Shown piece by piece: positions 5,302 to 47,605 of a DNA stretch of 64,000 bases (the first letter of the stretch is position 1; each line of letters begins with the position of its first letter). This DNA comes from a virus. Taxonomy: Duplodnaviria; Heunggongvirae; Uroviricota; Caudoviricetes. Position numbers and translations under genes: made by a program. Below the pieces are notes generated by a model. The model was not told the DNA's origin and ran no database searches. It saw only the letters and a program-made list of their open reading frames with translations. The DNA lies in the IMG/VR virus record IMGVR_UViG_3300013232_000486. One strand, written 5' to 3'.

Positions 5302-7995
5302 TTAGCCATTCATAAACATGAAAAATCTGTAGTACGGAATATTGTCCATTCCAAGTCCAGAGAAACCAGAGAACCCGCTAGGCCCAGATGACCCCATCCC
5401 CGAGAAGCCAGACGTAGCCGAGGCCCCTGACATTCCGCTCTCTCCGGATATACCACTATCGCCACTCCACCCACTGTAAGTACCAGAGAATCCGCTGGTA
5501 CCACTAATCCCACTTGATCCAGAGAAACCACTCGCGTTACCGTACAAGCCTCGCATCACTTGCACAACGGCACTGCTGGCGTCTATGCCAACAAGTACTG
5601 GTTTCGATACATAAGACCCATCTATTGCGTTCGGATCGCTTGGCGTCAAATCTCCAGCCGTAGGAGATAGATAGTAGTTTACGCCAGCCGAAAACCCAGA
5701 AAGACCAGCCAAGCCGTGCGTGACAACAACAAATGAGTTGGGCAGAGACTCCTCAACTACTCCAACAACCGATGAGTTTGCCGCTACGTCCGCTTCTGCT
5801 AACGCCCATGTCCCAGCAGTTGTCCTATATATGACTTGGTTTACCAAGAATCCATGACTTACTTGGCTAACAGTAAATCTAGTGGCTCCGCCAGGACCCG
5901 AGAATCCACTGAACCCAGACGGGCCAGATGGACCAGAGAAACCTTCGCCAGAGAAGCCCGAAGCTCCACTTGGGCCAGACGGACCAGAGAAACCAAGACC
6001 AGAAAATCCAGACGCTCCACTGATACCAGAGTTAGAAGAGTAACCACTCAGACCAGAGTATCCACTTGTACCACTTAATCCAGAGTATCCGCTTGTTCCG
6101 CTAAAGGCTGAATAACCACTTGTACCAGAGAAAGCACTGTATCCTGACGTTCCACTGTATCCACTAAAAGCTGAATATCCACTAACTCCTGACGATCCAC
6201 TGTAGCCAGAATATCCAGACGATCCACTAGTTCCACTATTACCACTAAATGCAGAATAGCCACTAGTACCAGACGTTCCAGAGAATGCACTATATCCTGA
6301 TGTACCACTACTGCCACTAAAAGCTGAATATCCACTCGTACCTGATGTACCAGAATCAGAAGAGTATCCACTCGAACCAGAATGACCACTACTTCCACTG
6401 TGTCCAGACGTTCCACTGTCTCCACTGTATCCACTAAATCCAAAAGCACCTTGTACACCACTAAATCCAGATGATCCGCTAGTACCACTAAAACTACTAT
6501 ATCCAGATACTCCACTGGTTCCAGATGAACCGCTTAGTCCTGAATCTGCCGAATAACCACTCAAACCACTCAAACCACTATATCCGCTTATTCCACTATA
6601 ACCACTTGATCCGCTAAATCCACTGAAGCCACTTTGACTACTGTATCCCGAGGCACCACTCGTTCCAGATGAACCACTAGTACCAGAGTATCCAATTTCA
6701 CCACTGTATCCACTAACGCCACTAAATGCAGAATATCCAGATGTACCTGATGTACCAGAAAGAGATGAGTATCCACTCAGTCCACTATATCCTGAAGTAC
6801 CAGAATATGAGACTTCTCCTGGCGCTCCTGAAAAACCACTCGTTCCAGATGGACCAGAAGGACCACTAAATCCCTCTCCACTAAACCCAGAAAACCCACT
6901 CTGACCGCTCATTCCACTAAACGCGCCAGAGAAACCGCTTGCTCCAGAATCGCCGCTAGTACCAGACTGCCCACTCCATCCACTTGCTCCAAACCCAGAA
7001 AAACCACTCAGTCCAGAGAAGGCTGAGTATCCACTAGTACCAGACGAACCACTATGTCCAGATGCTCCTGAGTCACTTGAGAAACCAGAGTATCCGCTAG
7101 TCCCAGAAAAGGAACTATATCCAGACGTACCTGATGTACCTGATTCTCCAGACAGGCCGCTCGTTCCACTTTGACCAGAAACACCGACAAGACCAAATCC
7201 TATCCAGCAGTCTTTGTTGTTGCGCAACGGACTTCCCGAGTCCGACTCATATGAGATCGCTGGGAATTTTACATAGCCTCCAGCCCCACCAGATAAAATT
7301 GGAGCAAGACTTACAACAAAAATAAGCCACCTAGTCACATCATCCTTTTCTTGGAAATAGATTCTCGACCCAACACTAATATTGAGAAGAAACGCTGAGA
7401 CATCAACCCCCGCCTTGTTGTACACATCGACAAATGCCTGCGAAGAAGAAGGCTGGACTATATTATCAAGCCTAAAATAGCCAGCTCCTGGGTCGGAATC
7501 TGACGTCGAGGAGTCGAATACATATATGAACGACATAATCGCTGAACCTGGAGCTCCAGATGTTCCGCTAAATCCTGACGTTCCAGACCAAGCGCTATAG
7601 CCAGACAGACCACTATCACCACTATCACCACTATAACCGCTTATACCACTTTGTCCTTGAACACCACTGAATCCAGAGTCACCAGTTAGACCAAGACCAC
7701 TAAATCCTGATGTACCACTTTCTCCGCTAGCTCCACTATACGTACCTGAAAATCCACTTGTTCCGCTGTACCCAGAAATGCCTGATGGACCTGACGGGCC
7801 AGACGGGCCAGAGTACCCCTCGCCTGAGAATCCGCTGAAACCTGACGGGCCAGAGGGACCAGAAGGACCAGAATAACCTTCGCCAGAGAACCCGCTAAAC
7901 CCAGAAGGTCCAGACGGGCCAGAAAAACCCTCACCCGAGAACCCAGACGTCCCGGAGATCCCGAACCAATATTTCCTGCTTAGAACGTTGCTCAT
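5302..7995 (-). CDS. Long collagen-like fibre protein, (Gly-X-Ser)n, with two inserted globular domains
   Basis: Gly at every third residue over long stretches (GTSGYSGFS...), interrupted by non-repeat domains FIYVFDSSTSDSDPGAGYFRLDN and HGFLVNQVIY..WALAEAD..VVGVV. Confidence 0.75.
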   Translation of the reverse strand: MSNVLSRKYWFGISGTSGFSGEGFSGPSGPSGFSGFSGEGYSGPSGPSGPSGFSGFSGEGYSGPSGPSGPSGISGYSGTSGFSGTYSGASGESGTSGFSGLGLTGDSGFSGVQGQSGISGYSGDSGDSGLSGYSAWSGTSGFSGTSGAPGSAIMSFIYVFDSSTSDSDPGAGYFRLDNIVQPSSSQAFVDVYNKAGVDVSAFLLNISVGSRIYFQEKDDVTRWLIFVVSLAPILSGGAGGYVKFPAISYESDSGSPLRNNKDCWIGFGLVGVSGQSGTSGLSGESGTSGTSGYSSFSGTSGYSGFSSDSGASGHSGSSGTSGYSAFSGLSGFSGFGASGWSGQSGTSGDSGASGFSGAFSGMSGQSGFSGFSGEGFSGPSGPSGTSGFSGAPGEVSYSGTSGYSGLSGYSSLSGTSGTSGYSAFSGVSGYSGEIGYSGTSGSSGTSGASGYSSQSGFSGFSGSSGYSGISGYSGLSGLSGYSADSGLSGSSGTSGVSGYSSFSGTSGSSGFSGVQGAFGFSGYSGDSGTSGHSGSSGHSGSSGYSSDSGTSGTSGYSAFSGSSGTSGYSAFSGTSGTSGYSAFSGNSGTSGSSGYSGYSGSSGVSGYSAFSGYSGTSGYSAFSGTSGYSAFSGTSGYSGLSGTSGYSGLSGYSSNSGISGASGFSGLGFSGPSGPSGASGFSGEGFSGPSGPSGFSGFSGPGGATRFTVSQVSHGFLVNQVIYRTTAGTWALAEADVAANSSVVGVVEESLPNSFVVVTHGLAGLSGFSAGVNYYLSPTAGDLTPSDPNAIDGSYVSKPVLVGIDASSAVVQVMRGLYGNASGFSGSSGISGTSGFSGTYSGWSGDSGISGESGMSGASATSGFSGMGSSGPSGFSGFSGLGMDNIPYYRFFMFMNG

Positions 7996-8001
7996 TCTTC
8001 A

Positions 8002-9285
8002 TCACACGCGCCTGATCATGAGCGCGATCGTGGCCCTCGTTATTGTTGTGTTTGAGACAACATAGAAAGCGAGCACGTCGCCACTTGAGATGGTAGTCGT
8101 TGACCATCCACTGAAGTCTGTCGTGGATGAGTATCTCTGGTTCACAAGCTCGGGATAATTCGTTCCCGTGATCGTATTCCCTGGAAGTGGAACGTCTTGG
8201 TTTCTCTTCCAGATGTCAACCTCCATGGTTCCTTGCATGTCAGATACTAGCGTTACCTTTTCAATAACCCCGTCATAGTCAAGAACAAGGTTGCCTTTCT
8301 CTCCGGTCGAAACCGCCATCCCGCCACCGTCTATCATGAAGTTTTCAGTGTCGCCGGGGAGAGAGCCAGAGAAGCCCGAGAAGCCTGATGTTCCCGCTCC
8401 AGTTGGACCCTCTTGACCGCTAAATCCACTGGCTCCAGACTCGCCTTGTGATCCGCTATCCCCAGAGTATCCAGACGTACCAGACATACCTGAGAAGGCG
8501 CCAGAGAATCCAGACGTACCAGAGTCGCCACTTAAGCCGCTAGTCCCAGACAGACCACTATACCCAGATTCTCCAATGCCAGAGAATCCCGACATGCCAG
8601 AATCAGCGCTAAATCCGCTCGTTCCAGACTCACCAGACGTACCACTGTACCCAGACTCGCCAGAAAATGCACCGCTAAAACCAGACGCGCCAGAGTATCC
8701 GCTATAGCCACTCTCGCTACTGTATCCAGACAACCCACTGAAACCGCTAAAACCACTCTCACTACTGTATCCACTGTATCCACTAATACCAGATGGTCCA
8801 CTGTATCCAGAAAGGCCTAGGCCACTGTATCCAGACGTTCCAGACGGCCCTACTTGTCCAGAATACCCAGACCGACCTGACGGAGAACTATATCCAGACG
8901 CGCCACTGGTTCCGCTGTATCCCATCTGTCCGCTTGTACCAGATGAGCCACTTAGACCAGATAGGCCGACATTACCAGGCGAACCAGAGTACCCTGATTC
9001 TCCGCTGAAACCAGATATCCCGCTGTACGCACCAGAGAATCCGCTGTACCCGCTGGTCCCAGAGCTGCCAGACAGACCAGAGTAGCCAGACGTACCAATC
9101 CCGCTGAACCCGCTTATGCCACTATACCCAGACTCGCCCAAGACCGAAATGCCAGACGTCCCAGAACTTGCCAAGGCTCCCAAATCTATGACATATGACT
9201 TTGGAGTCGGGGGTGACTGCGCAGAGAAACACGGAGTCACTGGGATCGTTCCAGTAAGATAGTTATGTGTTCCTTGGACAGCCAC
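8002..9285 (-). CDS. Collagen-like (Gly-X-Ser)n fibre protein with a C-terminal globular domain
   Basis: SG-X repeats followed by FMIDGGG..STGEKG..I.KVTLVSD..G..EVDIWK..GDVLAFYV. Confidence 0.72.
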   Translation of the reverse strand: MAVQGTHNYLTGTIPVTPCFSAQSPPTPKSYVIDLGALASSGTSGISVLGESGYSGISGFSGIGTSGYSGLSGSSGTSGYSGFSGAYSGISGFSGESGYSGSPGNVGLSGLSGSSGTSGQMGYSGTSGASGYSSPSGRSGYSGQVGPSGTSGYSGLGLSGYSGPSGISGYSGYSSESGFSGFSGLSGYSSESGYSGYSGASGFSGAFSGESGYSGTSGESGTSGFSADSGMSGFSGIGESGYSGLSGTSGLSGDSGTSGFSGAFSGMSGTSGYSGDSGSQGESGASGFSGQEGPTGAGTSGFSGFSGSLPGDTENFMIDGGGMAVSTGEKGNLVLDYDGVIEKVTLVSDMQGTMEVDIWKRNQDVPLPGNTITGTNYPELVNQRYSSTTDFSGWSTTTISSGDVLAFYVVSNTTITRATIALMIRRV

Positions 9286-32346: not shown

Positions 32347-32374
32347 TTGACTTTGTGTTGGTCATTTGTACGAT
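32347..32374 (+). promoter_or_regulatory. Promoter TTGACT-N16-TACGAT
   Basis: Intergenic; hexamers read directly. Confidence 0.65.
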
Positions 32375-34050: not shown

Positions 34051-35418
34051 GTGGACCTCCAAAACCAGCCAATCGTCCATGCCAGCGGAGCGTCCAGAAA
34101 GGATCCTCTGTTTATTTCCCTTTGCAACAAGTACTTTAACGTCAGCATCCCAGACGACGTGACGGTGGTCACATACTCGGACGAAAAAGCTGGCCCCTAT
34201 CTGCTCGAAAAACAGTTGCTTCATAACGGGATACACTATGTGACCGTCAAACTTGACGGAAAATACCATAAGGAGCCGTTCTGGCAAAAGATTCATGCTT
34301 TCAGAGACGCGCTGCCACTCATCAAGACGAAATGGATACTGGCGCTTGATGCCTTTGACGTGATACTTCGTGGCGGCATAGAAGGGATGCTTAGATACGT
34401 CAAAGAGAACGATCTTGATGCCTTTTTCGGAGCGGAATGGGGACACTGGCCACATAGTTGCATGACCAGCGAGAAAGAAAGGGCGTTTCACCCCAATTCG
34501 TTATGCCAGTACTTGAATTCTGGCGTCATTCTGATGAAGCGAGACTGGATCGACGCCAAAACGCGAAGCTTGACAGAGCCAGTAAGCGATCAGCCATTCT
34601 ACAAAGAGCTGTACGTCAAGGAGTTTCCAAAGGTCGATATCGATCATGAGTCGAGGTTCGTCTTGAACTTGAATGGACTGGATCGAGAGCGAGGATTGTA
34701 CACCAAAGAGGAGAATGAAAGGCTTGTCCTGGAGGCCAGGAAAATGGTCTCGTCTATTCCAGCCAAGGAGCTTGGCGTCATCTTCTTGTCGCATAGAACA
34801 TGCGGGGCGACGTACAGAAACTACAGCGCCTTCAAGGAATTCAACCCTTCGGCAGACGTGGTCATGGTCAATCTGGCAAGCCCACGTTTTCCGTTCGGCT
34901 ACGACTTCTCAAGCAACGACTTTTGTAGGCGTTTGACACACGGCGACAAGGAATTGTGGTGGATCAATGAAGATGCACTTTACTACGAGTACTATCGTAG
35001 GAGAGAGGAAAACTGCAAGAGATGGCTCCTCGCCGAATGGGACCTGTTCTGTAATGGAGACGTAAAGGACTTCTTCGGTCCGCTCTGGGACAAGCCGTTT
35101 GTTTCGGCGGACATACATTCGGACATCGCTGACGGATGGTATTGGTTCAGAGACATCGACAAACTGCCCAAGAAGGCTCACAAGCATGCCGCTGGGGCGA
35201 GCATTCTGGCTGGGACGCTGATTTCTGACGAATGCATGGAAAAGATCGTTCTAGAGTCGTGGTGGGTTGGGCTTCCCGTTTTCTGCGAACTCAGGATCGC
35301 AACCTTGGCCAAGATGGCTGGGTTTGAGTTGAATCTGAACCAGAACGCCCAAGGTCTAAGATGGAAAATCAAACCAGCGATTACCGGGCGCGGGTTGTGG
35401 CATCCGATGAAAGAGTGA
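34051..35418 (+). CDS. Two-domain glycosyltransferase: PLOD-GT-like domain plus a DUF3405-like domain
   Basis: LDAFDVIL..FGAE..YLNSG..DQ..Y..IDHE..F..NL; second half WLLAEWDL..GD..FF. Confidence 0.65.
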   Translation: MDLQNQPIVHASGASRKDPLFISLCNKYFNVSIPDDVTVVTYSDEKAGPYLLEKQLLHNGIHYVTVKLDGKYHKEPFWQKIHAFRDALPLIKTKWILALDAFDVILRGGIEGMLRYVKENDLDAFFGAEWGHWPHSCMTSEKERAFHPNSLCQYLNSGVILMKRDWIDAKTRSLTEPVSDQPFYKELYVKEFPKVDIDHESRFVLNLNGLDRERGLYTKEENERLVLEARKMVSSIPAKELGVIFLSHRTCGATYRNYSAFKEFNPSADVVMVNLASPRFPFGYDFSSNDFCRRLTHGDKELWWINEDALYYEYYRRREENCKRWLLAEWDLFCNGDVKDFFGPLWDKPFVSADIHSDIADGWYWFRDIDKLPKKAHKHAAGASILAGTLISDECMEKIVLESWWVGLPVFCELRIATLAKMAGFELNLNQNAQGLRWKIKPAITGRGLWHPMKE

Positions 35419-35422
35419 CCCC

Positions 35423-38400
35423 ATGTTCCTAGTGACCAACGACAAAGTCGTCGACGCAAGCGGGCCGATTGACGAGATGAGGGCCTTGCTCGCCAAAGAC
35501 GAGTACAACTATGCTTGTTTCCTGTACTCTGACAAGCTTTCCGTCTTGTTCGACCAGGTCAAGCCAGAAAAGGTCAGGCTGATGGGAGACTGGGAAGGGC
35601 AGAACTTCTTCTTCCCAGAGGTTCCAACCGCATTTCTGTACCCGTCCGAGGATAATTACAAGTTTGCGAATGGATCGCCACTGGTTCACTTTTCGTGCCT
35701 GGGATGGGCCGCTGACAGCCCCCTTTGGACGGAGAACAGAATGTCAGAGGACAAGTATACCGAGAGGTTGCTGAACTTGTCCAAGTTCGCTTCGAAGAAA
35801 CGGCTATTCTTTTATGGAACCAAGCCACAGGAGGAGACTGGCGGGATAAGGAGGACTCGTCGTATCGAACAACTGTCCATCCTCAGCAACAGTGGGTTCA
35901 CCGTAGTTTCTACTGGTTTTGTACCAACCAAGGACAAAAAGCTAATCGACGCGATGGAAGAAGCAGAATGCTTTGCGGCTGTGGGGCTTGACGGACTGAG
36001 CATAGGATGCAAGAGGGATCACGAACTTCTTTTGTCTGCCGTTCCATTCATGCGGGTGACCCACAAGAAGGAATACCTCCGTTTCGTCGACCCTCTTCAT
36101 ACTGGTTGGGCAGTTTCAATTGATGGGATAAGGGACGTTCCAGGGATATGGAACGACATCAAGAACGGATTGTCTGATGGAACTTTGACGAGGAGATTGT
36201 TTGACGCAAGGGACATGTCGACGTACCTTATTGAAAACGTTCGGTTCATGCAAGTTCTTGACTCTGTGGCATTCAATCACAACATCACCGACAATATATT
36301 CAAGGGTCTTGCGCTAGACGAGCTGCCGCAAGCTGACGCCGTTAAGCAAGTACTGGAAAACGCCACGAAAGTAGCGGCGAGTCGAGTTGACGGATACTCG
36401 TTCTGTGACGCGCAAGGCGATACTCTACCAAACAAGTACTCTGTGCTAATACCAGACAAGTTCAAGGAAAACGTTCTTCCTTTGAGCCAGTCGCTCATCG
36501 TTTCGTCCAAAGGAAAGGAAACCCCGACCAAACCCAAGTTGTCTTTCATTATTCCGTGCATGGGAAGACTTGATCATCTCAAGCAAACTCTTCCTAACCT
36601 CTCGGCTCAAGTGGACTCGGAAGTCATTGTCGTGGACTGGTCTTGTCCAGAGAAGAGCGGAGAATGGGCCGCTCGTTGGCCTGCGACAAGGGTAGTCGAC
36701 GTGCTTGGAGAGAAGAAATTTAGTTTGTCGAAGTCCAGGAACATAGGAGCAAAGGCCGCTCGTGGAGAATGGCTTTGTTTCTTGGACTGCGACATGGTCG
36801 TCATTCCAGACTTTTCAAAGATCATCATCGACATAATCGTCAACAAGATCGAGCCCGTCGACGCCAAGGACGGCGAGATCAACTACTTCATTAGTTTCGG
36901 AACCTCCAACGAGGCTGGTCACTCGGGGATGACGACGTGTCGCAAGGTGGACTGGGAGGTCGTTGGCGGCTACGACGAGCAGATGGAGGGGTGGGGATGG
37001 GAAGACACCGACTTCAAGAAGCGTCTGAAGATCAAGGGCGTCCTGGAATTCCCAGTTGATAAGGGACTCGCAAGGCACATAGATCATGGAAACGAAGAAC
37101 GAACCAAGTACTACGACGACAAGGACCAGAACATCAGTCACGTCAGAAACCAAAAGTTGTCAGACGAGAAACTAGAAAACTTCAAGAACATGGGTGGGTT
37201 TTGGAGCGCCTCCCATGCCAACTGGACAGGGGCGTTGTTGTTCAACGCCAACGGGACGTTTGAGAGATATCGGCATCACGACAAGGGCAACTGGATGGTC
37301 GAGGGCAAGCAACTGGTGCTCAAATGGTTGCAGTGGCCGCCAGAAAAACTCGATGAACGAAGCCCTGGATACTACGTTGGGAACACGCTGAGGATCAAGA
37401 AGGTAAAGAACGGGATTGAAACGTGGGCCTCGTACTTCGAGCTCGGTGGAGGGCTTGGAGACAAGCTTTGCGCCTTGTCCGCCATCAAGGAATACGCCAA
37501 GAAGACCACGCAAAGAGTCAAAGTTTCCAATCCAGAGCTGGCCGACGTGATATCGGCATATGAAGACACCACCATGTCGTTTGGCCTTGGCGGCAAGAAG
37601 GTATTTTGTGATAACGGGTCAAAACATTTCGGAAGAAACTATTTCGAGGCATTCAGAAGCTCTCTCGGGATGCCACTAGGCTCTCTGCCACGACTGGATC
37701 TTCCGAGACTAAAGCCACATCCAGACTACGAACCAGGCTCGTACATAGTTGTTCAGCCAGTTGGAAACTCATGGGTCAACCTTCCAGAGGCGTCTCTGCA
37801 AGAGCTCGTAGACAAGTGTTCCAAAACGAGTAAGGTCATCGTTGTTGGTAATCCAAAGACGCCAAAAACATTGAAGGGTGTCGAATACATATTGGATCAC
37901 GACATACTGATCATGCTCAGGCTAATCAGCTACGCCAGGGCCGTCTTGACCCCTCATTCCGCCTCGGCTCACATCGCGGCTGGATACAACGTTCCTACCC
38001 TAATATGGGCCGACCTAGACCTAAGACATGAAATGCATTTTGAATATCCCGGATGGAACAAGATAAGGATATCCCCGCTGGCCACCGTCCCAGAGCTGTT
38101 GCGAGCCCTTGATGATCTGCTTAGCGGAAAGCAACTTGAGCCAATTGGACTAACCACGAAGACTTCTGGCCGTCTTGGAAACGAAATGTTCCAATATGCC
38201 GTCACACGTTTGTTGGCCGAAGCTGACGGCCTGGCGTTCAAGGTTCCTTGTCAACATGTCAACAAGGCTTATCCTAAACTGGAGATGGAACGCGGAACGG
38301 CAAGCTCGTACTTACACATATCAGGAGACCCGTACTACCACTCTTACGGCTCATGCGTTGATCTGGTCTTGGCTAATGCTGACAAGATGGCAGAATGGTT

Positions 38401-39727
38401 CCCCGTATCCGACTATGGACGCAAGATATTGGACTCGCATGGAAACCCGCCCGTCATTCATGTGAGGGGAACAGACTTCCAAGACATGGACTGGACGCTT
38501 GGACAGTTCTATTATGCCAGTGCGATCAAAAAGCTATCTTCCAAGCCAATCGTTATTACGGATGACCCAGAGTATGCAAGGGAACTCTTTCCAGACCTCG
38601 TGATCGTCAGTACCGAGGACGACTTCTCGGTTCTGGCCCACGCCACGGAACTGGTATGCAGTTATTCGAGCTTCTGCTGGTGGACCGCGTTCCTCGGTAA
38701 GCACAAGCTGGTTGTGGTTCCAGAAAAAGACGAGTTGTTCATAAGGTCCTCCACGGCATTGGAGTGGACGATGCTTCCTTGTGTACTTGGAGAGGGGGCC
38801 GTTCCCGCCGCCACCATGGCTCCAACTGATATAGACGTCACTGGAGAATGGAAAGTAAGTCACGCACAATGGTCTGACGTGATACGACTAGACAAAGATG
38901 GCTCGTTCATCAGAGAAAACGCAGCCTGGGACATTGGAACATGGGAGGCATCCGAGGGGAAGGTTGTCTTAAAGTGGAAGAGGTGGGACCCTGAGGAAGC
39001 CGTCATCAAGGACGGGAATCTAGTTGGGAAAAGGTTCGTGGCCACACGAAAATGGAAGCTCAAGAACCCGAAGATCTCGTTCTGTACAACTTGCAAGGGC
39101 AGGTTGTGGCAACTTGAACAGACGTACGTCAAAAACATCGAAACAGCCATCGCAGAGTATCCGAACGTCGAGTTCATTCTGTTGGACTACCGTTCTCCAG
39201 ATGGCCTTGAGGAATGGGCGAAGAAGAACTTGAGGACGTACGTTGACAAGGGAATCGTCAAGTACTTCAAGCTATATGACGACTTGCCTTGGCATGCTTC
39301 AAAGTCAAGAAACATGGCGCACCGAGTTGCCAGCGGAGACATACTGTGTAATCTCGACGCAGACAACTTCCTTGAGGAAGGCTATACGGTACGTCTTTCC
39401 ATGTACATTGGTCCGAAAATGGCATCAAGGATTGGAGGTAATAGGTCGCTTGGTGGCAGAATAGCCCTGTACAAGGGAGACTTCTATGACGTCGGAGGGT
39501 ATGACGAGTCTCTGGCCCCAATGGGACACTTGGATAACGACATTGAGAAGCGACTTGCCATGGCCGGTGTGGCTGTGTCTGTCTGGCCAGCCACGATTCT
39601 TCCAATACCAAACACTGATGAGCAACGGGCAGAGTTCTGTGGAATGTCCTACGAAGAATGCTGCAAGATCAGCCAGAAGAAGATGAACGAGAACTCATTC
39701 ATGAAGAGGGTAAAAGTGAACGAATAG
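35423..39727 (+). CDS. Giant multi-domain glycosyltransferase (unknown N-domain + GT2/GT7C + W-rich domain + GT9-like + GT11-like + W-rich domain + GT2/GT7C)
   Basis: SFIIPCMGRL..FLDCD..GGYDE..GWG.ED (~36530-37190); GGGLGD (~37440-38120); GRLGNEMFQYA..HVRGTDF..SSFCWW (~38160-38770); SFCTTCKGRL..NLDAD..GGYDE (~39070-39720). Confidence 0.85.
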   Translation: MFLVTNDKVVDASGPIDEMRALLAKDEYNYACFLYSDKLSVLFDQVKPEKVRLMGDWEGQNFFFPEVPTAFLYPSEDNYKFANGSPLVHFSCLGWAADSPLWTENRMSEDKYTERLLNLSKFASKKRLFFYGTKPQEETGGIRRTRRIEQLSILSNSGFTVVSTGFVPTKDKKLIDAMEEAECFAAVGLDGLSIGCKRDHELLLSAVPFMRVTHKKEYLRFVDPLHTGWAVSIDGIRDVPGIWNDIKNGLSDGTLTRRLFDARDMSTYLIENVRFMQVLDSVAFNHNITDNIFKGLALDELPQADAVKQVLENATKVAASRVDGYSFCDAQGDTLPNKYSVLIPDKFKENVLPLSQSLIVSSKGKETPTKPKLSFIIPCMGRLDHLKQTLPNLSAQVDSEVIVVDWSCPEKSGEWAARWPATRVVDVLGEKKFSLSKSRNIGAKAARGEWLCFLDCDMVVIPDFSKIIIDIIVNKIEPVDAKDGEINYFISFGTSNEAGHSGMTTCRKVDWEVVGGYDEQMEGWGWEDTDFKKRLKIKGVLEFPVDKGLARHIDHGNEERTKYYDDKDQNISHVRNQKLSDEKLENFKNMGGFWSASHANWTGALLFNANGTFERYRHHDKGNWMVEGKQLVLKWLQWPPEKLDERSPGYYVGNTLRIKKVKNGIETWASYFELGGGLGDKLCALSAIKEYAKKTTQRVKVSNPELADVISAYEDTTMSFGLGGKKVFCDNGSKHFGRNYFEAFRSSLGMPLGSLPRLDLPRLKPHPDYEPGSYIVVQPVGNSWVNLPEASLQELVDKCSKTSKVIVVGNPKTPKTLKGVEYILDHDILIMLRLISYARAVLTPHSASAHIAAGYNVPTLIWADLDLRHEMHFEYPGWNKIRISPLATVPELLRALDDLLSGKQLEPIGLTTKTSGRLGNEMFQYAVTRLLAEADGLAFKVPCQHVNKAYPKLEMERGTASSYLHISGDPYYHSYGSCVDLVLANADKMAEWFPVSDYGRKILDSHGNPPVIHVRGTDFQDMDWTLGQFYYASAIKKLSSKPIVITDDPEYARELFPDLVIVSTEDDFSVLAHATELVCSYSSFCWWTAFLGKHKLVVVPEKDELFIRSSTALEWTMLPCVLGEGAVPAATMAPTDIDVTGEWKVSHAQWSDVIRLDKDGSFIRENAAWDIGTWEASEGKVVLKWKRWDPEEAVIKDGNLVGKRFVATRKWKLKNPKISFCTTCKGRLWQLEQTYVKNIETAIAEYPNVEFILLDYRSPDGLEEWAKKNLRTYVDKGIVKYFKLYDDLPWHASKSRNMAHRVASGDILCNLDADNFLEEGYTVRLSMYIGPKMASRIGGNRSLGGRIALYKGDFYDVGGYDESLAPMGHLDNDIEKRLAMAGVAVSVWPATILPIPNTDEQRAEFCGMSYEECCKISQKKMNENSFMKRVKVNE

Positions 39728-39728
39728 C

Positions 39729-40463
39729 ATGGAAAAGGCCAGACTGGTGATGAATTGGGACAAAGATTTTCTGCTTCCAGAACAAGTCCCTATCATTGGA
39801 ACCTACCACGTTGCCATGATGAACGATTGGGTTCCTTTGGTTCAAGAGCAAGAGGCCCGACTAGTGAAATCTGGCTTATTAGGAGTCACCAGCAAGGTCT
39901 TTGTCGGAATGGTCGGCGATGCCGACGTAAAAAAATGGCAGATGACCACAGAGTTGTCTTCCAAAGCCTTGATCGTTCGAGATCCAGAGATAAAACACTG
40001 CGAGAACCCAACGCTGAACGCCTTGTATCAAGAGGCGCGGTCTTCCCCTTACTTTAAGGCATGGTACATCCATACCAAAGGGATTTCGTCTAGCCTTCGG
40101 ACAGTTGGAACCAAAGAAATGCCTGCTGGTGATCCAGAAGCGATCAGAGATTGGCGCTTGGTGATGGAATACTTTGTCATTGATCGATTCAAGGACTGCA
40201 TTTCCATCCTTAATCAATGCGACGTGTGTGGGGTCAAGCTGCAAAGAGAGCACCGTTACTTTAGTGGCAATTTCTGGTGGGCCAACTCGACTCACCTTAA
40301 AAGACTTCCACCCGTACTTGGAAAAGACAGGCTTTTTGCGGAGAAGTGGGTTGGGATGGCTCCCGGGATCCTTCGCAATCTATACAACTGTGAAGTTTCA
40401 TATACAAAGAGACTTCCAGAAGAAGAATACAGACCGTCATCAAAGGAGTTTGGTCATGGTTGA
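39729..40463 (+). CDS. Putative glycosyltransferase-like protein (YIHTKG..FSGNFWW family)
   Basis: WYIHTKG..DWR..MEYF..YFSGNFWWANS..AEKW, a pattern I associate with large-virus glycan clusters; N-terminal ARLVMNW. Confidence 0.5.
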   Translation: MEKARLVMNWDKDFLLPEQVPIIGTYHVAMMNDWVPLVQEQEARLVKSGLLGVTSKVFVGMVGDADVKKWQMTTELSSKALIVRDPEIKHCENPTLNALYQEARSSPYFKAWYIHTKGISSSLRTVGTKEMPAGDPEAIRDWRLVMEYFVIDRFKDCISILNQCDVCGVKLQREHRYFSGNFWWANSTHLKRLPPVLGKDRLFAEKWVGMAPGILRNLYNCEVSYTKRLPEEEYRPSSKEFGHG

Positions 40464-41148
40464 TATCTACTTCTTCGGCATGAGGCGCAGCGGCAACCAC
40501 GGAGTGATCAAACGGCTGCTTGGGCAGTTCGGTCACTTGGATCCAAGAGAAAACCTACGCGCCAAGGGGGTGTTCTACAACGACTACAACAATTCGTCCG
40601 AGGACTTGGTTCCCGTCGAGCCAAGAAAAGACGTGGTTCGCTTGATCAGCTATGAAGATGACGTGCGACTACTCAGCCGTGACCATAGAGACAAGCTTCT
40701 TAAAGACGAAGTCGGCATGAAGAAGCATTGTTTTGTGCTGCTAAGGAACCCATTGAACTGGTACGCCTCTTATGGGGTTCTTGGAAAAGAGTTTGGCTGG
40801 CCTCCACTGACCCCGAAGTCATGGAGCGTGGACACAACGATTGAGTACTTCGAGAGCTTTTACATAAGATCAAAAGACCCCAGAGTCCACCCAATCCTTT
40901 TTGATAAATGGTTTAAGGAACCCTCATACAGAAAGGCGATCGCAAGGATAGTCGTTAACACTCCAAATGATAGAGGGTTCGGGATAATGGATCCGCAAAG
41001 CGCTCCAAGTTCTTTTGAAGGACGGAAGCATGTTGATAGCGCCTCAAAACTTGGAGTATTGGAGAGGTGGAGGTCTATCCCAAAAGAAGAACTGGAAGAG
41101 CTTCTTAAGAACGAGCGACTAGTCAGGATAGTAAAGAGGCTTGGGTAA
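40456..41148 (+). CDS. Sulfotransferase-like protein (untagged paralog)
   Basis: FFGMRRSGNH (5'-PSB-like); LLRNPLNWYAS (3'-PB-like). Confidence 0.55.
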   Translation: MVDIYFFGMRRSGNHGVIKRLLGQFGHLDPRENLRAKGVFYNDYNNSSEDLVPVEPRKDVVRLISYEDDVRLLSRDHRDKLLKDEVGMKKHCFVLLRNPLNWYASYGVLGKEFGWPPLTPKSWSVDTTIEYFESFYIRSKDPRVHPILFDKWFKEPSYRKAIARIVVNTPNDRGFGIMDPQSAPSSFEGRKHVDSASKLGVLERWRSIPKEELEELLKNERLVRIVKRLG

Positions 41149-41149
41149 G

Positions 41150-41971
41150 ATGCCCTTTCAACCCGCCAAGCTTACAATGAATTGGGCTAACAAGATCGGG
41201 CTCGAAACAATCGGTGCTCCACAGTTTCCTGCGATTAAGGTCGCCCCCGACTCTTTGGCGATACTGAGGAATCGTCTCTACAAGACGATCCCAGCCGTCA
41301 TTCATTGCCCAGACATTAGCAAACCACACGGTGACGGTCGAAACGCCCTCATGCGAGACCTCATGTCGTCAAAGAATACGAAAGCTACCCTACCACCAAA
41401 TGTCTCGTTGGTAACATGGAGCAACAGGCCAAGCCCATCGCCACTTGAACTTCAATGTGATGCGATCGGACTGCCCATTCACGTGCTTGGAAAAGAGATT
41501 CGGGACTGGCGCAACGGTCTTAAAGGGCAGCTTTTGATTAAGTTTGCCAGATCTTCCGACAAGGAGTTTGTTGTGGCGCTTGACGCTTTTGACATAAAGA
41601 TACAAGGAGACCTCTCCCTTTGCGTAGCAGAACTAAATAAAATGGGATGCGGGGCGCTTTTCGGAGCAGAAACGAACTCGTATCCGAACGAGCTTCATTC
41701 AATCTTTGAATCGGAAAGGTATCGCTTTCCGTTTCGCTTTTTGAATTCTGGAATGATGATCGCAAGAAGTAATTTTCTTACGGAAATAGAAGACCAGGCT
41801 TGGGGGTGTTCAGACCAAGAGGTATGGCGAGACATTCACAGACAAAAATGGCCACAGATCAGCCTGGATGACGGATGTAACGTGTTCCAAAACATAAATT
41901 TAAGTGCAATATCTGCTAGTGTGGCAGAGATGTTTGAGGTAGTATATCCTGGAGAGTCCAAAGAGGCTTAG
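41150..41971 (+). CDS. PLOD-GT-like glycosyltransferase with the N-terminal FQPAKLxxNW tag
   Basis: VALDAFD..FGAE..FLNSG..DQ..W..LDD.C.VFQN. Confidence 0.65.
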   Translation: MPFQPAKLTMNWANKIGLETIGAPQFPAIKVAPDSLAILRNRLYKTIPAVIHCPDISKPHGDGRNALMRDLMSSKNTKATLPPNVSLVTWSNRPSPSPLELQCDAIGLPIHVLGKEIRDWRNGLKGQLLIKFARSSDKEFVVALDAFDIKIQGDLSLCVAELNKMGCGALFGAETNSYPNELHSIFESERYRFPFRFLNSGMMIARSNFLTEIEDQAWGCSDQEVWRDIHRQKWPQISLDDGCNVFQNINLSAISASVAEMFEVVYPGESKEA

Positions 41972-41975
41972 CTAG

Positions 41976-42833
41976 ATGTCATTCCAGCCTGCCAAACTCA
42001 CGATGAACTGGGCAGTCGACGTGGTCTGCGACGACAAGCTGAAACTCGTTCCGTACGAGGTACCAAAGAACAGGGAACGATTGCCGATACGGAAGCTCGG
42101 CCCTCTTCTACCAGATTCCGCATTCTCCGGGATCCTTGAGGTTCTTCGTGGCAAGAGATGGGCGTTCTTCCAGTTGCCTGGCAATGTCGGCGACTCAATG
42201 ATTGAGGAGGGGACGCAGCAACTGCTCAAGCGGAATAGTATTGTCATGAGCAAGTACAATGGAGACATACCAGAATGGGCAGAAGGGCTGCTTTTGTCTG
42301 GCGGGGGGAACATCGGAACAATCTGGAGTTACGAGCGAGTACGAAAGCCCCATTTCGACCAGGCAAGCGACAGGAGTTTGCCGATCGTCATATTGCCACA
42401 AAGCATATGCAATCCAGATGAGCGCATTCCAAAGAACGCGGTCGTATTTGTCAGAGAGGTCGAGTCGCTTAGGCACTGCCCAAAGGCACGTCTTGCGCCA
42501 GACATGGCCTTCGCGTTGACCACAAACCTCCAGTTATACTCGCCTAATAGAAAGAGGGGAGTCTTCTTGCGAAGTGACTGCGAGAGCGTTTTTGGGTCTC
42601 CGTTTGGAACTGATCCCGTCAACATCGCGAATGGATGGGTAGAATACATTAGGCTCGCCTCCGAGAATGAGGAGGTCGTGACTGATCGATTACACTTTAC
42701 GATGTGTTCGATTTTGGCTGGAAGAAAAACGACGATACTAAGAAACTCGTACCACAAAAACCAAAGCATGTGGGAAACGTGGCTGAAGAACATGGGGTGT
42801 CTGTTTGGGACCGAGACATCAGGAGATCAGTAA
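41976..42833 (+). CDS. Polysaccharide pyruvyltransferase (EpsI/YxaB-like) with the N-terminal tag
   Basis: PGNVGD; GGGNIG; ILPQS; FVRE..S; APDMAF; VTDRLH; NSYHK. Confidence 0.82.
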   Translation: MSFQPAKLTMNWAVDVVCDDKLKLVPYEVPKNRERLPIRKLGPLLPDSAFSGILEVLRGKRWAFFQLPGNVGDSMIEEGTQQLLKRNSIVMSKYNGDIPEWAEGLLLSGGGNIGTIWSYERVRKPHFDQASDRSLPIVILPQSICNPDERIPKNAVVFVREVESLRHCPKARLAPDMAFALTTNLQLYSPNRKRGVFLRSDCESVFGSPFGTDPVNIANGWVEYIRLASENEEVVTDRLHFTMCSILAGRKTTILRNSYHKNQSMWETWLKNMGCLFGTETSGDQ

Positions 42834-43612
42834 TGCCCTTCCAGACGGCGCGGCTTGATAGAAACTGGTCTACCGAGATCGCTGTAAAGTCTAGCGGGGT
42901 TCCGTCAAGTCCATCGGACGTGATTGACATTTACTTCTTCGGCATGAAACGCAGTGGCAACCACGGGGTGATAAAATGGCTGCTTGGGCAGTTTGATCAC
43001 CTAAATCCAGAAGACAACCTGCGCAGCAAGGGGATATTCCATAACGATTACAACAGCGTTTCCAGGTCACCGCTTCCAGAAACTCCGAGGAAAGACAAGG
43101 TTCGCCTGGTCAGTTATGAAGATGATGCACGGCTGCTGGATCGAGAATATAGGGACTCGCTTCTCCGTTCAGAACTAGGAATGACGAAGCATTGCTTTGT
43201 ACTTTTAAGGCATCCGTTGAACTGGTACGCCTCATACAAGGTTCTTGCTAAGCAATGGGGATGGTCCGAGCTTACACCGAAGTCTTGGCTCGTCGACATG
43301 ATGCTCAAGTACTTCGAGAATTTTCACATGGAATCAAAAGACCACAGAGTCTGCCCGATCATTTTCGACAAGTGGTTCAAGGATCCTTCGTATAGAAGAT
43401 CAATCGCGGCGACCGTCACAGACCGCCCCAATGACAGGGGATTTGGGTCTATGGACGCGCATAGCGTTCCGAGTTCGTTTGAGGGATGGACACATATCAA
43501 GAATGCCAAGGAACTCGGAGTATTAGAGAGATGGAAGTCAATCACAGAAGAAGAGCTAAAAGAACTCCTCGGGAACGAGCGCCTGGCCAGGATAGTTGAG
43601 GGGCTCATCTAA
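42833..43612 (+). CDS. Sulfotransferase-like protein (tagged paralog of 40456..41148)
   Basis: MPFQTARLDRNW plus a linker, then DIYFFGMKRSGNH..LLRHPLNWYAS. Confidence 0.55.
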   Translation: MPFQTARLDRNWSTEIAVKSSGVPSSPSDVIDIYFFGMKRSGNHGVIKWLLGQFDHLNPEDNLRSKGIFHNDYNSVSRSPLPETPRKDKVRLVSYEDDARLLDREYRDSLLRSELGMTKHCFVLLRHPLNWYASYKVLAKQWGWSELTPKSWLVDMMLKYFENFHMESKDHRVCPIIFDKWFKDPSYRRSIAATVTDRPNDRGFGSMDAHSVPSSFEGWTHIKNAKELGVLERWKSITEEELKELLGNERLARIVEGLI

Positions 43613-44457
43613 TGCCGTTTCAGCCATCTCGTCTTCTGATGAACTGGACTACGGAAGTTTGCATTAACAGCCGCGAAATTTCACGTGTCAACTTGCCTAG
43701 ACATGTAATTTTAGAGAACTCTAAAATTTGTTTAAGACCAAACGGATTCGGACTAGGGGACAAAGTATGCGCTTTGACCGCTACTAGAGTACTTGCAAGA
43801 TCCTATAACAAACAGTTTATTTTTGACGGACTTCCAGATATTATAGACGCCTACGGAGATAAGTTGGTTGAACGAGCAAACGGAACTAGTAATTTGACGT
43901 TCCAATGGAAAATGGACTGGATCGATACAAGAACCAACGGATTAAAATACGGAAATCTAGTTGGCGCATTTTTGTCAAGCATCGGCTTAGAGGCAATGAA
44001 GTTGAGACCAGAGTTGCCGCTATTTAAGCCAGAACTTACCGATAAAAGCTATATTGTGATTCAGCCATATGGTTGTTCCGTAGGAAATCCAAGTAAAACA
44101 TTCTTGCAAGCAGTTGTTAACGCAACAATAAGCGCTTTTCCAAATAAAAAGATAGTAGCTGTTGGTAGGGACACAGGAGAAGTTCTTCAAGGAATTGATT
44201 ACACGTTTCTTTCTGGATCTCTCAAGAAGATGTTCTCTTTGATACAACACTCGTTTTTGGCTTTAACTCCAAACTCAGCGACGGCACACATCGCGGCGGG
44301 ATACCAAGTGCCATCATTGATATGGATAAACTTTGGAAATAAAAATAACGCAGAACAAGTATATTTTTTTGATTACCCTGAATGGAGGAGACAGACGATT
44401 TCATTCTCCTCCATAGAATGCATTCGCAGTTCTATTTTAGAACTTTGTCAATCCTAG
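43612..44457 (+). CDS. GT9 (heptosyltransferase-like, GT-B) protein with the N-terminal tag
   Basis: GFGLGD..IVIQPYG..LTPNSATAHIAAGY.VP; paralogous to the GT9-like domain of the giant GT. Confidence 0.72.
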   Translation: MPFQPSRLLMNWTTEVCINSREISRVNLPRHVILENSKICLRPNGFGLGDKVCALTATRVLARSYNKQFIFDGLPDIIDAYGDKLVERANGTSNLTFQWKMDWIDTRTNGLKYGNLVGAFLSSIGLEAMKLRPELPLFKPELTDKSYIVIQPYGCSVGNPSKTFLQAVVNATISAFPNKKIVAVGRDTGEVLQGIDYTFLSGSLKKMFSLIQHSFLALTPNSATAHIAAGYQVPSLIWINFGNKNNAEQVYFFDYPEWRRQTISFSSIECIRSSILELCQS

Positions 44458-45778
44458 TAACCATCGACTCTGGGACTTTTTCGAATGTCCCAGCCCACAT
44501 CCGTACTCTCATCCCACCACTAACAATAGTAAAACCGAATGTATTGGGGCCTTCCCATTTGAAAAGCAGAGTCTGTCCATCCTTTGTGAATGAGTTCGTA
44601 GTTGCGCTCTTTTTAACTTTTCCGTCTTGCGTCAGGTCGCTTACACGTAACTCATATCCCGTACCGACCTTCTTGACCTGCAACGAAAGTGGATAGCTTA
44701 GCGCCACTTGCCAAGTTCCACTCCAATCTTGATTCTTGATCATATAGGCAATTAGGGCGCTTTGTCCAGCGCCTGCCCGACCCTTAATCTCGGCGCTGTT
44801 CCCAGATTCCTTCACCGCGATACGGACTGGCTGCGAATCTTTGAATCCCTCCTTTGCCGTCGCAACTACGGCATTCCCAGCGGGCAACTGAATCGTACAA
44901 GGAGCCACCGCAGGCTTCCCCGTCTTATCCATCACTGGCTTCCCGTCCACGAACACGCTCCAGCCCTCGCCCATCTCAGCGGATACAGTGACCTCCACGT
45001 CATACTTGGGGAACTCCATCTTCACAACGTCGGGCTTGGTAATGGCGTCACCCGCCACGACCTGAACCTCGGAATCCTCATACTTGTCCTTGCGCAGAAC
45101 CAGCGTCGTCGGCCCCTTGGGCAACTGAACCAGCGAAGGGGTCTTGGCCCCCGTGTCCCGAAGCTCGTTGTTCTGACGGACGAGGATCGACGCTCCGATG
45201 GGATTGCTCTGGACGTACACCTTCCCGTCACCCTTCTCAGCGGCTCCGACCACCTTGTTGGCGGGTTGCGCCACTTTGGCTTGCTGGAGGAACTTCAGGG
45301 ACTTCTCAAGGGCTTGATCCCCTTCGGGCGTCCCCTTGAAACGGCTGGCGACCTCAAAGTACCTGACCGCGACCAAGAAGCCATCCTTCTGGCTCTCCGC
45401 ATATCCGTCAACCTTGGCCAGCCACCCCTTGGCGTCCTCTGGCTTGACCGCCACAGCGACAACGGCCTCCATCTTGGCCACGGCAGCTTTTGCCACGCCG
45501 TTGCCTTTGGCGAGGAACATGTCGATCTGCGCGATGGTCATCTTCTTCTTGGCCCAGAAGAGGCAGGAGTTGACCTCCTCGGCCTCGGCGTCCTTGCCTT
45601 CGGCAATCAAGGCATCGGCTGCTTGAGAGAGGAAGCGGGCGGCGACCACGATCTGGTCGGGATCGGCCTGGGCCGCTCGGAGGGCCTCGATGCCCTTGGC
45701 TTTGAGTTCGGCTCCAGTTTCGCCCCCGAAGGCGGTTCCAAGGAAGGCCAGGACTAGGATCAGAATGACGGTTCGCAT
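44432..45778 (-). CDS. Secreted PEGA-domain protein
   Basis: Signal peptide MRTVILILVLAFLGTAFGG after GGAG; V.VQSNP.GA.I..G..TP..V.LP.G...L.L.K..Y. Confidence 0.72.
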   Translation of the reverse strand: MRTVILILVLAFLGTAFGGETGAELKAKGIEALRAAQADPDQIVVAARFLSQAADALIAEGKDAEAEEVNSCLFWAKKKMTIAQIDMFLAKGNGVAKAAVAKMEAVVAVAVKPEDAKGWLAKVDGYAESQKDGFLVAVRYFEVASRFKGTPEGDQALEKSLKFLQQAKVAQPANKVVGAAEKGDGKVYVQSNPIGASILVRQNNELRDTGAKTPSLVQLPKGPTTLVLRKDKYEDSEVQVVAGDAITKPDVVKMEFPKYDVEVTVSAEMGEGWSVFVDGKPVMDKTGKPAVAPCTIQLPAGNAVVATAKEGFKDSQPVRIAVKESGNSAEIKGRAGAGQSALIAYMIKNQDWSGTWQVALSYPLSLQVKKVGTGYELRVSDLTQDGKVKKSATTNSFTKDGQTLLFKWEGPNTFGFTIVSGGMRVRMWAGTFEKVPESMVTRIDKVLK

Positions 45779-45846
45779 TTCAACGTCTCCTTTCAGTTGA
45801 AGTATACCATGCTCATTGTGCCTTTCAACTTGGCGTGCCGCTGTGC

Positions 45847-46344
45847 CTAGGGCATAAGATGGTTTTTCCCACACGCTTTTAGGTTCTCGACCATCCTGGC
45901 TGGGGCGATCAGGCGCGGGGTCCATTGGAGATGCCCGCAAGACAAGATCTCTCCCCATGATATCCATTCGGTTTGTTTTCGCCAGTTGGCCACCAAGAAC
46001 TGGTCAGTCCACGTTTTCCTGGGCTTGCCCTTCTTGTAGGCAACGGCAAGGACTGAGTGGAAGCCTCTCTCGCAATGGACGGCCATGGCGCAAGGAAGGT
46101 ATTTGGCGACCCAATAGACGTCCCATTGGAGGTCGAAGTACTCTAGGCCGAGCCTTTCACGCTCAAATTTGGTTTCCAGCGCCGAGCCATGGATGCATTT
46201 GGCCTTTTTGCAGATCTCCTTGTACCGCCTCGTCCCAATTTTCGGGACAAGGCGCTCAAGTCCCCAAAAACGAGCCGCGTTCCAGATCGAAACGAGCTTG
46301 CATTCCGAATATAGCTGCTCGTTCTGGTACTCAGGGTGATTCAT
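45847..46344 (-). CDS. Possible papain-like (C39-type) peptidase
   Basis: Q..SEC near the N-terminus, GFHSVL and VANW, in the order of a catalytic Cys/His/Asn triad. Confidence 0.4.
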   Translation of the reverse strand: MNHPEYQNEQLYSECKLVSIWNAARFWGLERLVPKIGTRRYKEICKKAKCIHGSALETKFERERLGLEYFDLQWDVYWVAKYLPCAMAVHCERGFHSVLAVAYKKGKPRKTWTDQFLVANWRKQTEWISWGEILSCGHLQWTPRLIAPARMVENLKACGKNHLMP

Positions 46345-46853
46345 GCCTTTTCCTCTTCCGCGAGGGTGGTTATGTTTGTGGAGAAGCCCAAGTAGCTTTC
46401 AAGGAGACTTTCGGCCCTTCCGATATGAGCGGTCAGTTGGTCGAAGTAAGGCGCTCTCCATTTGGTTCTCATCCCAGCTTTGTGAGCAGTGTTAATAAGC
46501 CCGAACACACGTCGTATCTCCTTCACGTTGGCCTTAACCATGCTGGCCGCCTCGGAAGGGGAGCCGTGATCAAAGCCACATTTATGGAGCAGCGCTGCCA
46601 CCTTTTCGGCCCGTTTCGGGTTATCTCTCACCTTTTCAGAGCATACCGCCATGATCTTCGCGGCATATTTCTCCATCAACTCCATCTGGGCCAGCTTCAG
46701 ATTCTTCATGGCTCCCATTTTGAGCCTCCTTTGCCTGAAGTATACCCTATTCTGACTATCGTTCAATGCCTCGTGCCTGGTATGATTGAACCATGAGCTT
46801 TCAACCAGCGCGACTTGTGGGAAACTGGGCGAATAAGATCGCTCTTGGTTCAA
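46341..46853 (-). CDS. Hypothetical protein (true start likely near 46709-46718)
   Basis: Helical ORF with a 4-nt overlap to the downstream gene; the long 5' extension overlaps the opposite-strand gene. Confidence 0.6.
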   Translation of the reverse strand: MNQERSYSPSFPQVALVESSWFNHTRHEALNDSQNRVYFRQRRLKMGAMKNLKLAQMELMEKYAAKIMAVCSEKVRDNPKRAEKVAALLHKCGFDHGSPSEAASMVKANVKEIRRVFGLINTAHKAGMRTKWRAPYFDQLTAHIGRAESLLESYLGFSTNITTLAEEEKA

Positions 46854-47605
46854 CTACGGCGGCGGTAGAAAACCCGCCACTAACAATTGGCCTTCCTCAC
46901 GACGTTGGTGGCAACCCATTCAATAACAGCATTGTCTTTTGGCACGGAAGGTGGCTGATGACTTATCGACGTTCAGCAAACCTTTTCATTATTGAGTTGT
47001 CTAACAATTTTGAATACATAGACAAAGCGAGGCTGCTGATCAAGAACGCGATAGATGGAAGACTTTGCATATTGAATGGCAGTTTGTATTGCTCCTACTC
47101 GTCACTTGAGCAAGGTACCCGTTGCCATATGCACATCTGCAAACTCGACGATAACCTAAACATGGTCTTTGAAAAGCATTTCGATCCCATAAAAAAGCAT
47201 TGGGAGAAAAACTGGATGTTTTGTTCAATTGACGAAGAGATTTTCTGTGTTTACGACTACCAGCCCCTGTTGACTGTGTGGCATATGAACGAAAATTTTG
47301 AAGTAACTAACATCATTGCCAAGAAAACCATCGGTTGGGAATATGGGGCTATTCGAGGGAATACACCGCCGATACTGATCGACGGGAACCTCGTGATGAT
47401 CGTCCACTCCAAGATCAATAGAGGCTTGTACGTTAACGCTGTTTTACGGATGACAAAGAGTTTTGATATCCTCTCCATGCAAAAAATTGACATTGACAAC
47501 TTCGGAATTGTATTTCCATGTGGACTTGTGGAGTATCACGGGAAGTACTTCGTGTCATACGGAATAGATGATCGTGCTTGTAGGGTTCGCGAGGTTCTGC
47601 TATGA
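46793..47605 (+). CDS. Five-bladed beta-propeller glycosidase-like (GH130/DUF377-like) protein with the N-terminal tag
   Basis: FNNSI..YR..DGRL..EKNWM..RG.TPP..VFPCGL..VSYG.DD. Confidence 0.65.
   Translation: MSFQPARLVGNWANKIALGSTTAAVENPPLTIGLPHDVGGNPFNNSIVFWHGRWLMTYRRSANLFIIELSNNFEYIDKARLLIKNAIDGRLCILNGSLYCSYSSLEQGTRCHMHICKLDDNLNMVFEKHFDPIKKHWEKNWMFCSIDEEIFCVYDYQPLLTVWHMNENFEVTNIIAKKTIGWEYGAIRGNTPPILIDGNLVMIVHSKINRGLYVNAVLRMTKSFDILSMQKIDIDNFGIVFPCGLVEYHGKYFVSYGIDDRACRVREVLL

Follow-up and report, generated by a model that had tools for sequence, protein, structure and literature searches.

Described peptide-tag systems and the phage locus

Encapsulin cargo-loading peptides are short conserved terminal peptides that occur on unrelated cargo enzymes and are recognised by a shell of the HK97 fold, akin to that of phage capsids; they are usually C-terminal and have a GSL-type consensus. 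In T4, the capsid-targeting sequence (CTS) of the internal proteins IPI-III and Alt is one conserved and portable N-terminal peptide on otherwise diverse proteins (PMC3012670), and the encapsulation peptides of microcompartments (PduP, PduD and EutC) combine a terminal peptide of ca. 18 residues with a disordered, poorly conserved linker on the diverse enzymes of one pathway, whose co-assembly they drive (PMC12339742, PMC11157265). Here we describe a short N-terminal peptide, hereafter the tag, that is shared by six proteins of a glycan gene island in a 64,000-nt stretch (the window, i.e. the whole piece of DNA analysed) of the Caudoviricetes record IMGVR_UViG_3300013232_000486, and that has about an even chance of being a modular docking or targeting peptide which stands in for covalent fusion. 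The original prediction, drawn from the letters of the window, had regarded the tag as having no described equivalent; this was not borne out, the T4 CTS (PMC3012670) and the microcompartment peptides (PMC12339742) being precedents.

Like the T4 CTS, the tag is short, stands at the N-terminus of phage proteins that are otherwise unrelated, and belongs to a locus that differs in gene content from one related phage to the next. The two are distinct in that they have no sequence similarity, that the tagged cargo belongs to one biosynthetic pathway whereas the T4 cargo consists of anti-defence proteins, and that no protease site is seen after the tag. With the microcompartment peptides the tag shares the peptide-linker-enzyme layout, but these peptides are amphipathic helices that bind shell tiles whereas AlphaFold2 (AF2) predicts no helix for the tag of the pyruvyltransferase (residues 1-22, with a predicted local distance difference test score, pLDDT, below 50). 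As read from the alignment, L8, W12 and I16 of the tag fit a helical face, and L8, M10 and W12 together with I16 and L18 fit a beta-hairpin equally well. Neither BMC nor EutN shell families were found among the ca. 55 open reading frames (ORFs) of the window scanned with Pfam, which cover 64 of ca. 250 kb. Encapsulin cargo peptides differ from the tag in consensus and usually in terminus, and no encapsulin was identified here. Finally, the cohesin-dockerin pairs of the cellulosome and the docking domains of polyketide synthases (PKS) and nonribosomal peptide synthetases resemble the tag in being small common elements on many enzymes that provide assembly on a scaffold, or with the next module, in place of fusion (compare the fusions described below). 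Dockerins are folded Ca-binding domains of ca. 70 residues and PKS docking domains are helical bundles, whereas the tag is a disordered peptide of 18 residues; no cohesin-like repeat was identified for it, and the Trp-rich modules of the giant glycosyltransferase (GT) described below are only a guess as a counterpart.

A shared N-terminal peptide in the window

Six ORFs of the + strand with a tag-type N-terminus were identified from the list of ORFs and by scanning all six frames for the motif, which agrees with the near-identical N-termini that the original prediction had reported for six proteins; five of these carry the full tag and one, at 39729, a shortened form. No further copy of the motif was found by the six-frame scan of the 64-kb window, all other ORFs of which are untagged. 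The tagged genes and one untagged paralogue lying among them are as follows:

39729..39776, + strand: shortened tag MEKARLVMNWDKDFLL, at the start of a 244-aa YIHTKG/DUF8361-type enzyme (gene 39729-40463)
40456..41148, + strand: untagged paralogue of the 42833 protein, beginning right at the catalytic domain
41150..41203, + strand: full tag MPFQPAKLTMNWANKIGL, on a PLOD-type GT (gene 41150-41971; Pfam GT_PLOD, E = 7e-8)
41976..42029, + strand: full tag MSFQPAKLTMNWAVDVVC, on a polysaccharide pyruvyltransferase (gene 41976-42833; Pfam PS_pyruv_trans, E = 3e-15)
42833..42886, + strand: full tag MPFQTARLDRNWSTEIAV followed by an 11-aa linker, on a P-loop-like enzyme of unassigned family (gene 42833-43612)
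43612..43665, + strand: full tag MPFQPSRLLMNWTTEVCI, on a GT9-like enzyme (gene 43612-44457)
46793..46846, + strand: full tag MSFQPARLVGNWANKIAL, on a GH130-like beta-propeller protein (gene 46793-47605)

The full pattern, M[PS]FQx[AS][KR]LxxNW, occurs in five of the six ORFs, and its back-translated form, ATGNNNTTYCARNCNDCNMRNYTNNNNNNNAAYTGG, gave 0 matches in 100 dinucleotide-preserving shuffles of the window. The remaining ORF, at 39729 (MEKARLVMNW), has only the second half of this pattern, [AS][KR]LxxNW. In five cases out of six the tagged ATG is preceded by an in-frame stop 1-6 codons upstream, and four tagged starts have AGGAG/AGAGG-like sites 8-12 nt upstream; the motif is therefore located at genuine N-termini. 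The tag is longer than first reported, since NW is followed by [AST]x[DEK][IV]x[LVIC], which results in a consensus of ca. 18 residues, M[PS]FQ[PT][AS][KR]Lx[MV]NW-xx[DE][IV]x[LV], with a weaker second half. Within it L, N and W are invariant, and a variable linker of ca. 5-30 residues, often Pro-rich, separates it from the catalytic domain. Features of Sec, Tat or lipoprotein signals were not found in the tag (no hydrophobic run, no RR and no Cys lipobox), in line with the earlier view that it is not a Sec signal.

When the five full tags of the window are compared, 34 of the 57 codon pairs for identical residues (60%) differ synonymously, nucleotide identity over the 30-nt core is just 65%, and the K/R position alternates through AAR, CGN and AGR codons. 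Codons thus differ at identical residues and selection therefore acts on the peptide, the tag not being a DNA repeat, as had been proposed from the same synonymous variation.

Family labels given to the tagged proteins by the original prediction were retained in part. Those of the PLOD-type GT and of the pyruvyltransferase are confirmed by Pfam, the beta-propeller protein encoded at 46793 has a weak, sub-threshold match to GH130, and the label "sulfotransferase-like" for the 42833 and 40456 proteins found no support in Pfam, NCBIfam, PHROG or PDB.

The tag lies outside the catalytic folds

Comparison with paralogues and homologues indicates that the tag can be present or absent on otherwise similar enzymes. 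Identity between the 40456 protein, which lacks the tag, and residues 30-258 of the 42833 protein is 67%; an untagged paralogue encoded at 34051-35418 aligns to the 41150 protein only over residues 72-250; and residues 675-884 of the giant GT, with 35% identity to residues 45-264 of the 43612 protein, represent an untagged relative of the latter. Two pyruvyltransferase orthologues from metagenomes, P0002 (MLMGFQPAKLTMNW) and P0004 (MFQQAKLEMNW), retain the tag, while cellular homologues, for example that of Blastopirellula, begin ca. 45 residues later and without it. An orthologue of the 42833 protein, P0096, has an identical tag, and in another, P0097, the tag core is deleted so that only MTFQPS is left, joined to the catalytic domain. 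In the AF2 model of the pyruvyltransferase, which has a mean pLDDT of 88.7, residues 1-22 score below 50 and have no secondary structure, the tag of this protein being predicted to be free and disordered in the monomer. The paralogue at 40456, the cellular homologues, P0097 and the predicted disorder all agree with the original proposal of a modular element outside the catalytic folds. Conversely, the tag does not behave as an integral N-terminal strand of a conserved domain, given that homologues lack the segment and that AF2 predicts it as disordered.

Tagged genes on related contigs

The window belongs to a contig of ca. 250 kb from an uncultured jumbo phage that has no close relative in IMG/VR or INPHARED. 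Nine further tagged genes were found on three related metagenomic contigs, bringing the number of tagged ORFs to 15 on four contigs (six in the window, four on L003, three on L036 and two on L008):

L003, 6055: pyruvyltransferase, tagged
L003, 6908: VGNGPS+DUF8361 fusion, with the tag MPFQTASLSVNW
L003, 8234: S-adenosylmethionine (SAM) methyltransferase, tagged
L003, 16375: P-loop-like enzyme, with the tag MGFQHAMLVKNW
L036, consecutive and after the end of the giant-GT gene: Glyco_tranf_2_4 enzyme, pyruvyltransferase and VGNGPS protein, all tagged
L008: GH130-like protein (orthologue of the 46793 protein) and PLOD-GT (tag MPFKPARLTVNW), both tagged

At least nine catalytic types are tagged, namely DUF8361/YIHTKG, GT_PLOD, PS_pyruv_trans, P-loop-like, GT9-like, GH130-like, SAM methyltransferase, Glyco_tranf_2_4 and the VGNGPS domain. 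The giant GT also precedes the tagged genes in L003, L008 and L036, and all 15 tagged genes lie downstream of it and on the same strand. The set and the order of tagged cassettes, as well as the domain fusions, vary from phage to phage (window, L003, L036 and L008), so that the array is best described as hyperplastic. At position 10, the tags of the window and of L003 mostly have M and those of L036 and L008 mostly V, a split that may reflect a concerted, genome-specific drift.

The tag is confined to one lineage of uncultured giant phages. IMG/VR contained neither its pattern nor a relative of the giant GT; among INPHARED phages no match was found at the DNA level, and those to the giant GT were weak and limited to single domains. 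When a tag profile was run on 1.84 billion representatives, a low-complexity repeat and a fragment of the window's own protein were the only matches, the motif being too short for significance so that this is no evidence of absence; a word-index search limited to residues 1-40 gave no candidate, and a PDB sequence search with the profile nothing meaningful. A pattern scan of 185,579 species genomes yielded 10 matches, all of them in short ORFs and therefore attributed to chance. In the JGI metagenomes, 22 matches were obtained against ca. 25 expected (a rough estimate), with L008 as the sole clear family member. One further match, a TauD dioxygenase located beside ThyX (L005), was rejected as the Pfam TauD model spans the "tag" residues, one or two chance N-terminal matches being estimated in such a collection.

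The giant glycosyltransferase and a tagless relative

The gene located immediately upstream of the tagged array, which is also a candidate scaffold, encodes a giant enzyme in which Pfam recognises GT2/GT7C, GT9-like, GT11-like and second GT2 regions:

35423..39727, + strand: giant multi-domain GT, 1434 aa, directly upstream of the tagged array
about 37175-37438 and 38810-39073, + strand: two Trp-rich modules of ca. 75 aa within the giant GT

A more distant phage, L002, in which the tag is absent, encodes a homologue of the giant GT (ca. 1280 residues aligned, with 35-42% identity). In this phage, domains resembling the 39729 and 46793 proteins are internal to a single 784-aa protein, in which an N-terminal domain is followed by Methyltransf_24, DUF8361 and GH130-like domains. 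The N-terminal domain, of ca. 95 aa, is common to this protein and to the GT9-like enzyme of L002, the copies being ca. 80% identical as judged by eye on the alignment:

L002, 11601-11990 and 13952-14290: the two copies of the N-terminal domain of ca. 95 aa

This domain, for which no match was found in Pfam, PDB or the atlas, appears to be a lineage-specific counterpart of the tag. A third enzyme of L002, of 291 aa, starts with a Trp-rich module (L002 10729-10965) of the type that occurs in two copies in the giant GT of the window and in three copies in that of L002. As to the 39729-type domain, it is tagged only when encoded as a separate protein; in L002 and L003 it is fused behind other domains and the tag stretch is absent.

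These data indicate that shared add-ons swap at the same N-terminal position and that domains found as separate proteins in the window are fused in L002. The tag would therefore replace covalent linkage, i.e. mediate association, and this represents the strongest indirect argument for a docking role.

A proposed docking or targeting peptide and its alternatives

The tag may accordingly be viewed as a short linear motif that is portable and that a linker connects to glycan-tailoring enzymes, each encoded by its own gene. We infer that it binds one common partner, so that the enzymes would act as a non-covalent assembly line, a common scaffold for the glycan enzymes having been put forward by the original prediction; candidates for the partner are the giant multi-GT of the gene immediately upstream and the acceptor carrying the growing glycan. 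More tentatively, the tag could represent the client half of a phage docking system, in which exchangeable tailoring enzymes would all attach to a single reader site, located either on the giant multi-GT or on the acceptor of the glycan. If so, the phage could re-wire its glycan by swapping tagged cassettes, a cellulosome- or PKS-like docking logic that is not described for glycosyltransferases. The template-free ordering of soluble glycosyltransferases and tailoring enzymes into a pathway is an open problem, and a portable peptide on the enzymes of one viral glycan pathway would offer a direct experimental handle on it as well as a possible tool for synthetic glycan assembly lines.

Several observations weigh against a docking role. 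The basic residue of the tag is variable, being replaced by S, M or Q in three members. Several free-standing enzymes of the island are untagged (33178, 34051, 40456, 47602 and a GT32-like gene of L008), and not all enzymes of the island therefore need the tag. The tagless L002 also has the giant GT with its Trp-rich modules, so that their presence does not track that of the tag. Lastly, the tag-bearing contigs number just four and are of short to medium length.

Three other explanations were considered. If the tag were a signal for targeting to the virion or capsid, like the T4 CTS, the enzymes would be carried by it into the prohead, or into some other compartment of the virion, for delivery with the DNA, and it might be removed by a morphogenetic protease; the layout does match that of the T4 internal-protein locus, a hyperplastic array in which diverse proteins have one conserved peptide at the N-terminus (PMC3012670), and the content of the array varies among the window, L003, L036 and L008. 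This explanation is nonetheless quite unlikely, as the cargo consists of nucleotide-sugar- and cofactor-dependent tailoring enzymes that form one pathway with the untagged 1434-aa GT, as no conserved cleavage site of the [LI]xE type was found after the tag, where D, E, K, T, S and Y all occur as the third residue past NW, and as head genes were not seen nearby. Very unlikely is a degron or timing signal, by which a host or phage AAA+ protease, or an adaptor, would read the tag and so restrict how long the enzymes persist. The ClpX N-motif-1 of lambda O and Dps, reportedly described by Flynn et al. in 2003, is said to read polar-T/phi-phi-basic-phi near the free N-terminus, and the first half of the tag, Q-[PT]-A-[KR]-L, resembles it loosely, except for the three members with S, M or Q in place of the basic residue; the predicted disorder and the terminal position of the tag would also suit a degron. 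Degrons are, however, short and loosely conserved, whereas the tag has 18 patterned positions with invariant L, N and W, a patterned second half and a linker; the L002 fusions and the other N-terminal domains found on orthologous domains would also be left unexplained.

The tag might also be the inherited 5' end of a cassette and have no docking role, genes entering the array behind a fixed start whose first codons are kept for expression (translational coupling or early elongation) or as a recombination handle. Genes of the array are indeed very closely spaced, stop codons overlapping the next start (TAATG at 42833 and 43612), and the array is highly plastic among relatives. Yet a core with 65% nucleotide identity and largely randomised synonymous sites is too low in identity to serve as a recombination handle and suggests that the amino acids are under selection, the ribosome-binding-site regions upstream of the tagged genes show no conservation between them, and an expression signal needs neither an invariant Trp at residue 12 nor a patterned second half. 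An explanation of this kind is thus unlikely. Other known motifs were rejected on reading the tag alignment: an N-glycosylation sequon, because NW[ST] occurs in under half of the members, and a double-glycine leader, a PIP-box or beta-clamp motif and a split intein, each of which is a poor fit.

Candidate partners and neighbouring genes

Regarding the partner of a docking peptide, structure prediction was applied to the giant GT. The prediction of a complex between the tag (40 aa, 12-row alignment) and the giant-GT N-domain (residues 1-370) plus both Trp-rich modules gave a score of 0.00, which speaks neither for nor against binding, and the AF2 model of the N-domain itself (3-row alignment) has a mean pLDDT of 37.7, too poor to show whether residues 49-58 belong to a core strand. 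The latter belong to a tag-like stretch encoded at 35567-35626 (residues 49-68, PEKVRLMGDWEGQNFFFPEVP) that resembles the N-terminus of the 39729 protein, MEKARLVMNWDKDFLLPEQVP, with a BLAST E-value of only 0.98. The stretch fits a relaxed tag pattern, [QE]x[AV][KR]Lxx[ND]W, and is kept in the tag-bearing L003 whereas its Trp is lost in the tagless L002. By language-model features the Trp-rich module falls near lipocalin-like/Atu4866 domains (score 0.91, a lead only). An origin of the tag as a vestige of this module was considered and dropped, as the hidden Markov model of the module does not detect the tags.

Three small ORFs, at 32347, 32700 and 46341 (- strand), have homologues in the tag-bearing L003, whereas the 20.7 kb covered of L002 contain none; not assigned to any family, they are candidate partners of the tag. 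Another ORF, of 165 aa (45847-46344, - strand), is located between a PEGA protein and the last tagged gene and displays a Cys...His pattern resembling that of a small papain-like peptidase; it has no match in Pfam or PHROG and no homologue in L002 or L003.

A further contig, L037, extends the window to about 68.5 kb and adds, immediately beyond its right end, a DNA cytosine methylase and two GT4-family glycosyltransferases; both GT4 genes, ca. 20 kb downstream, are untagged. Elsewhere, the window encodes among others helicases, a DnaB-type helicase, a primase zinc finger, a uracil-DNA glycosylase and collagen-like tail fibres. The two collagen-like tail-fibre genes (5302-9285, - strand) occur in the same window as two PLOD-type GT domains (34051-35418 and 41150-41971). 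Because PLOD GT domains glycosylate collagen hydroxylysine in animals, the collagen-like fibres are, by analogy, a plausible acceptor of the island glycan.

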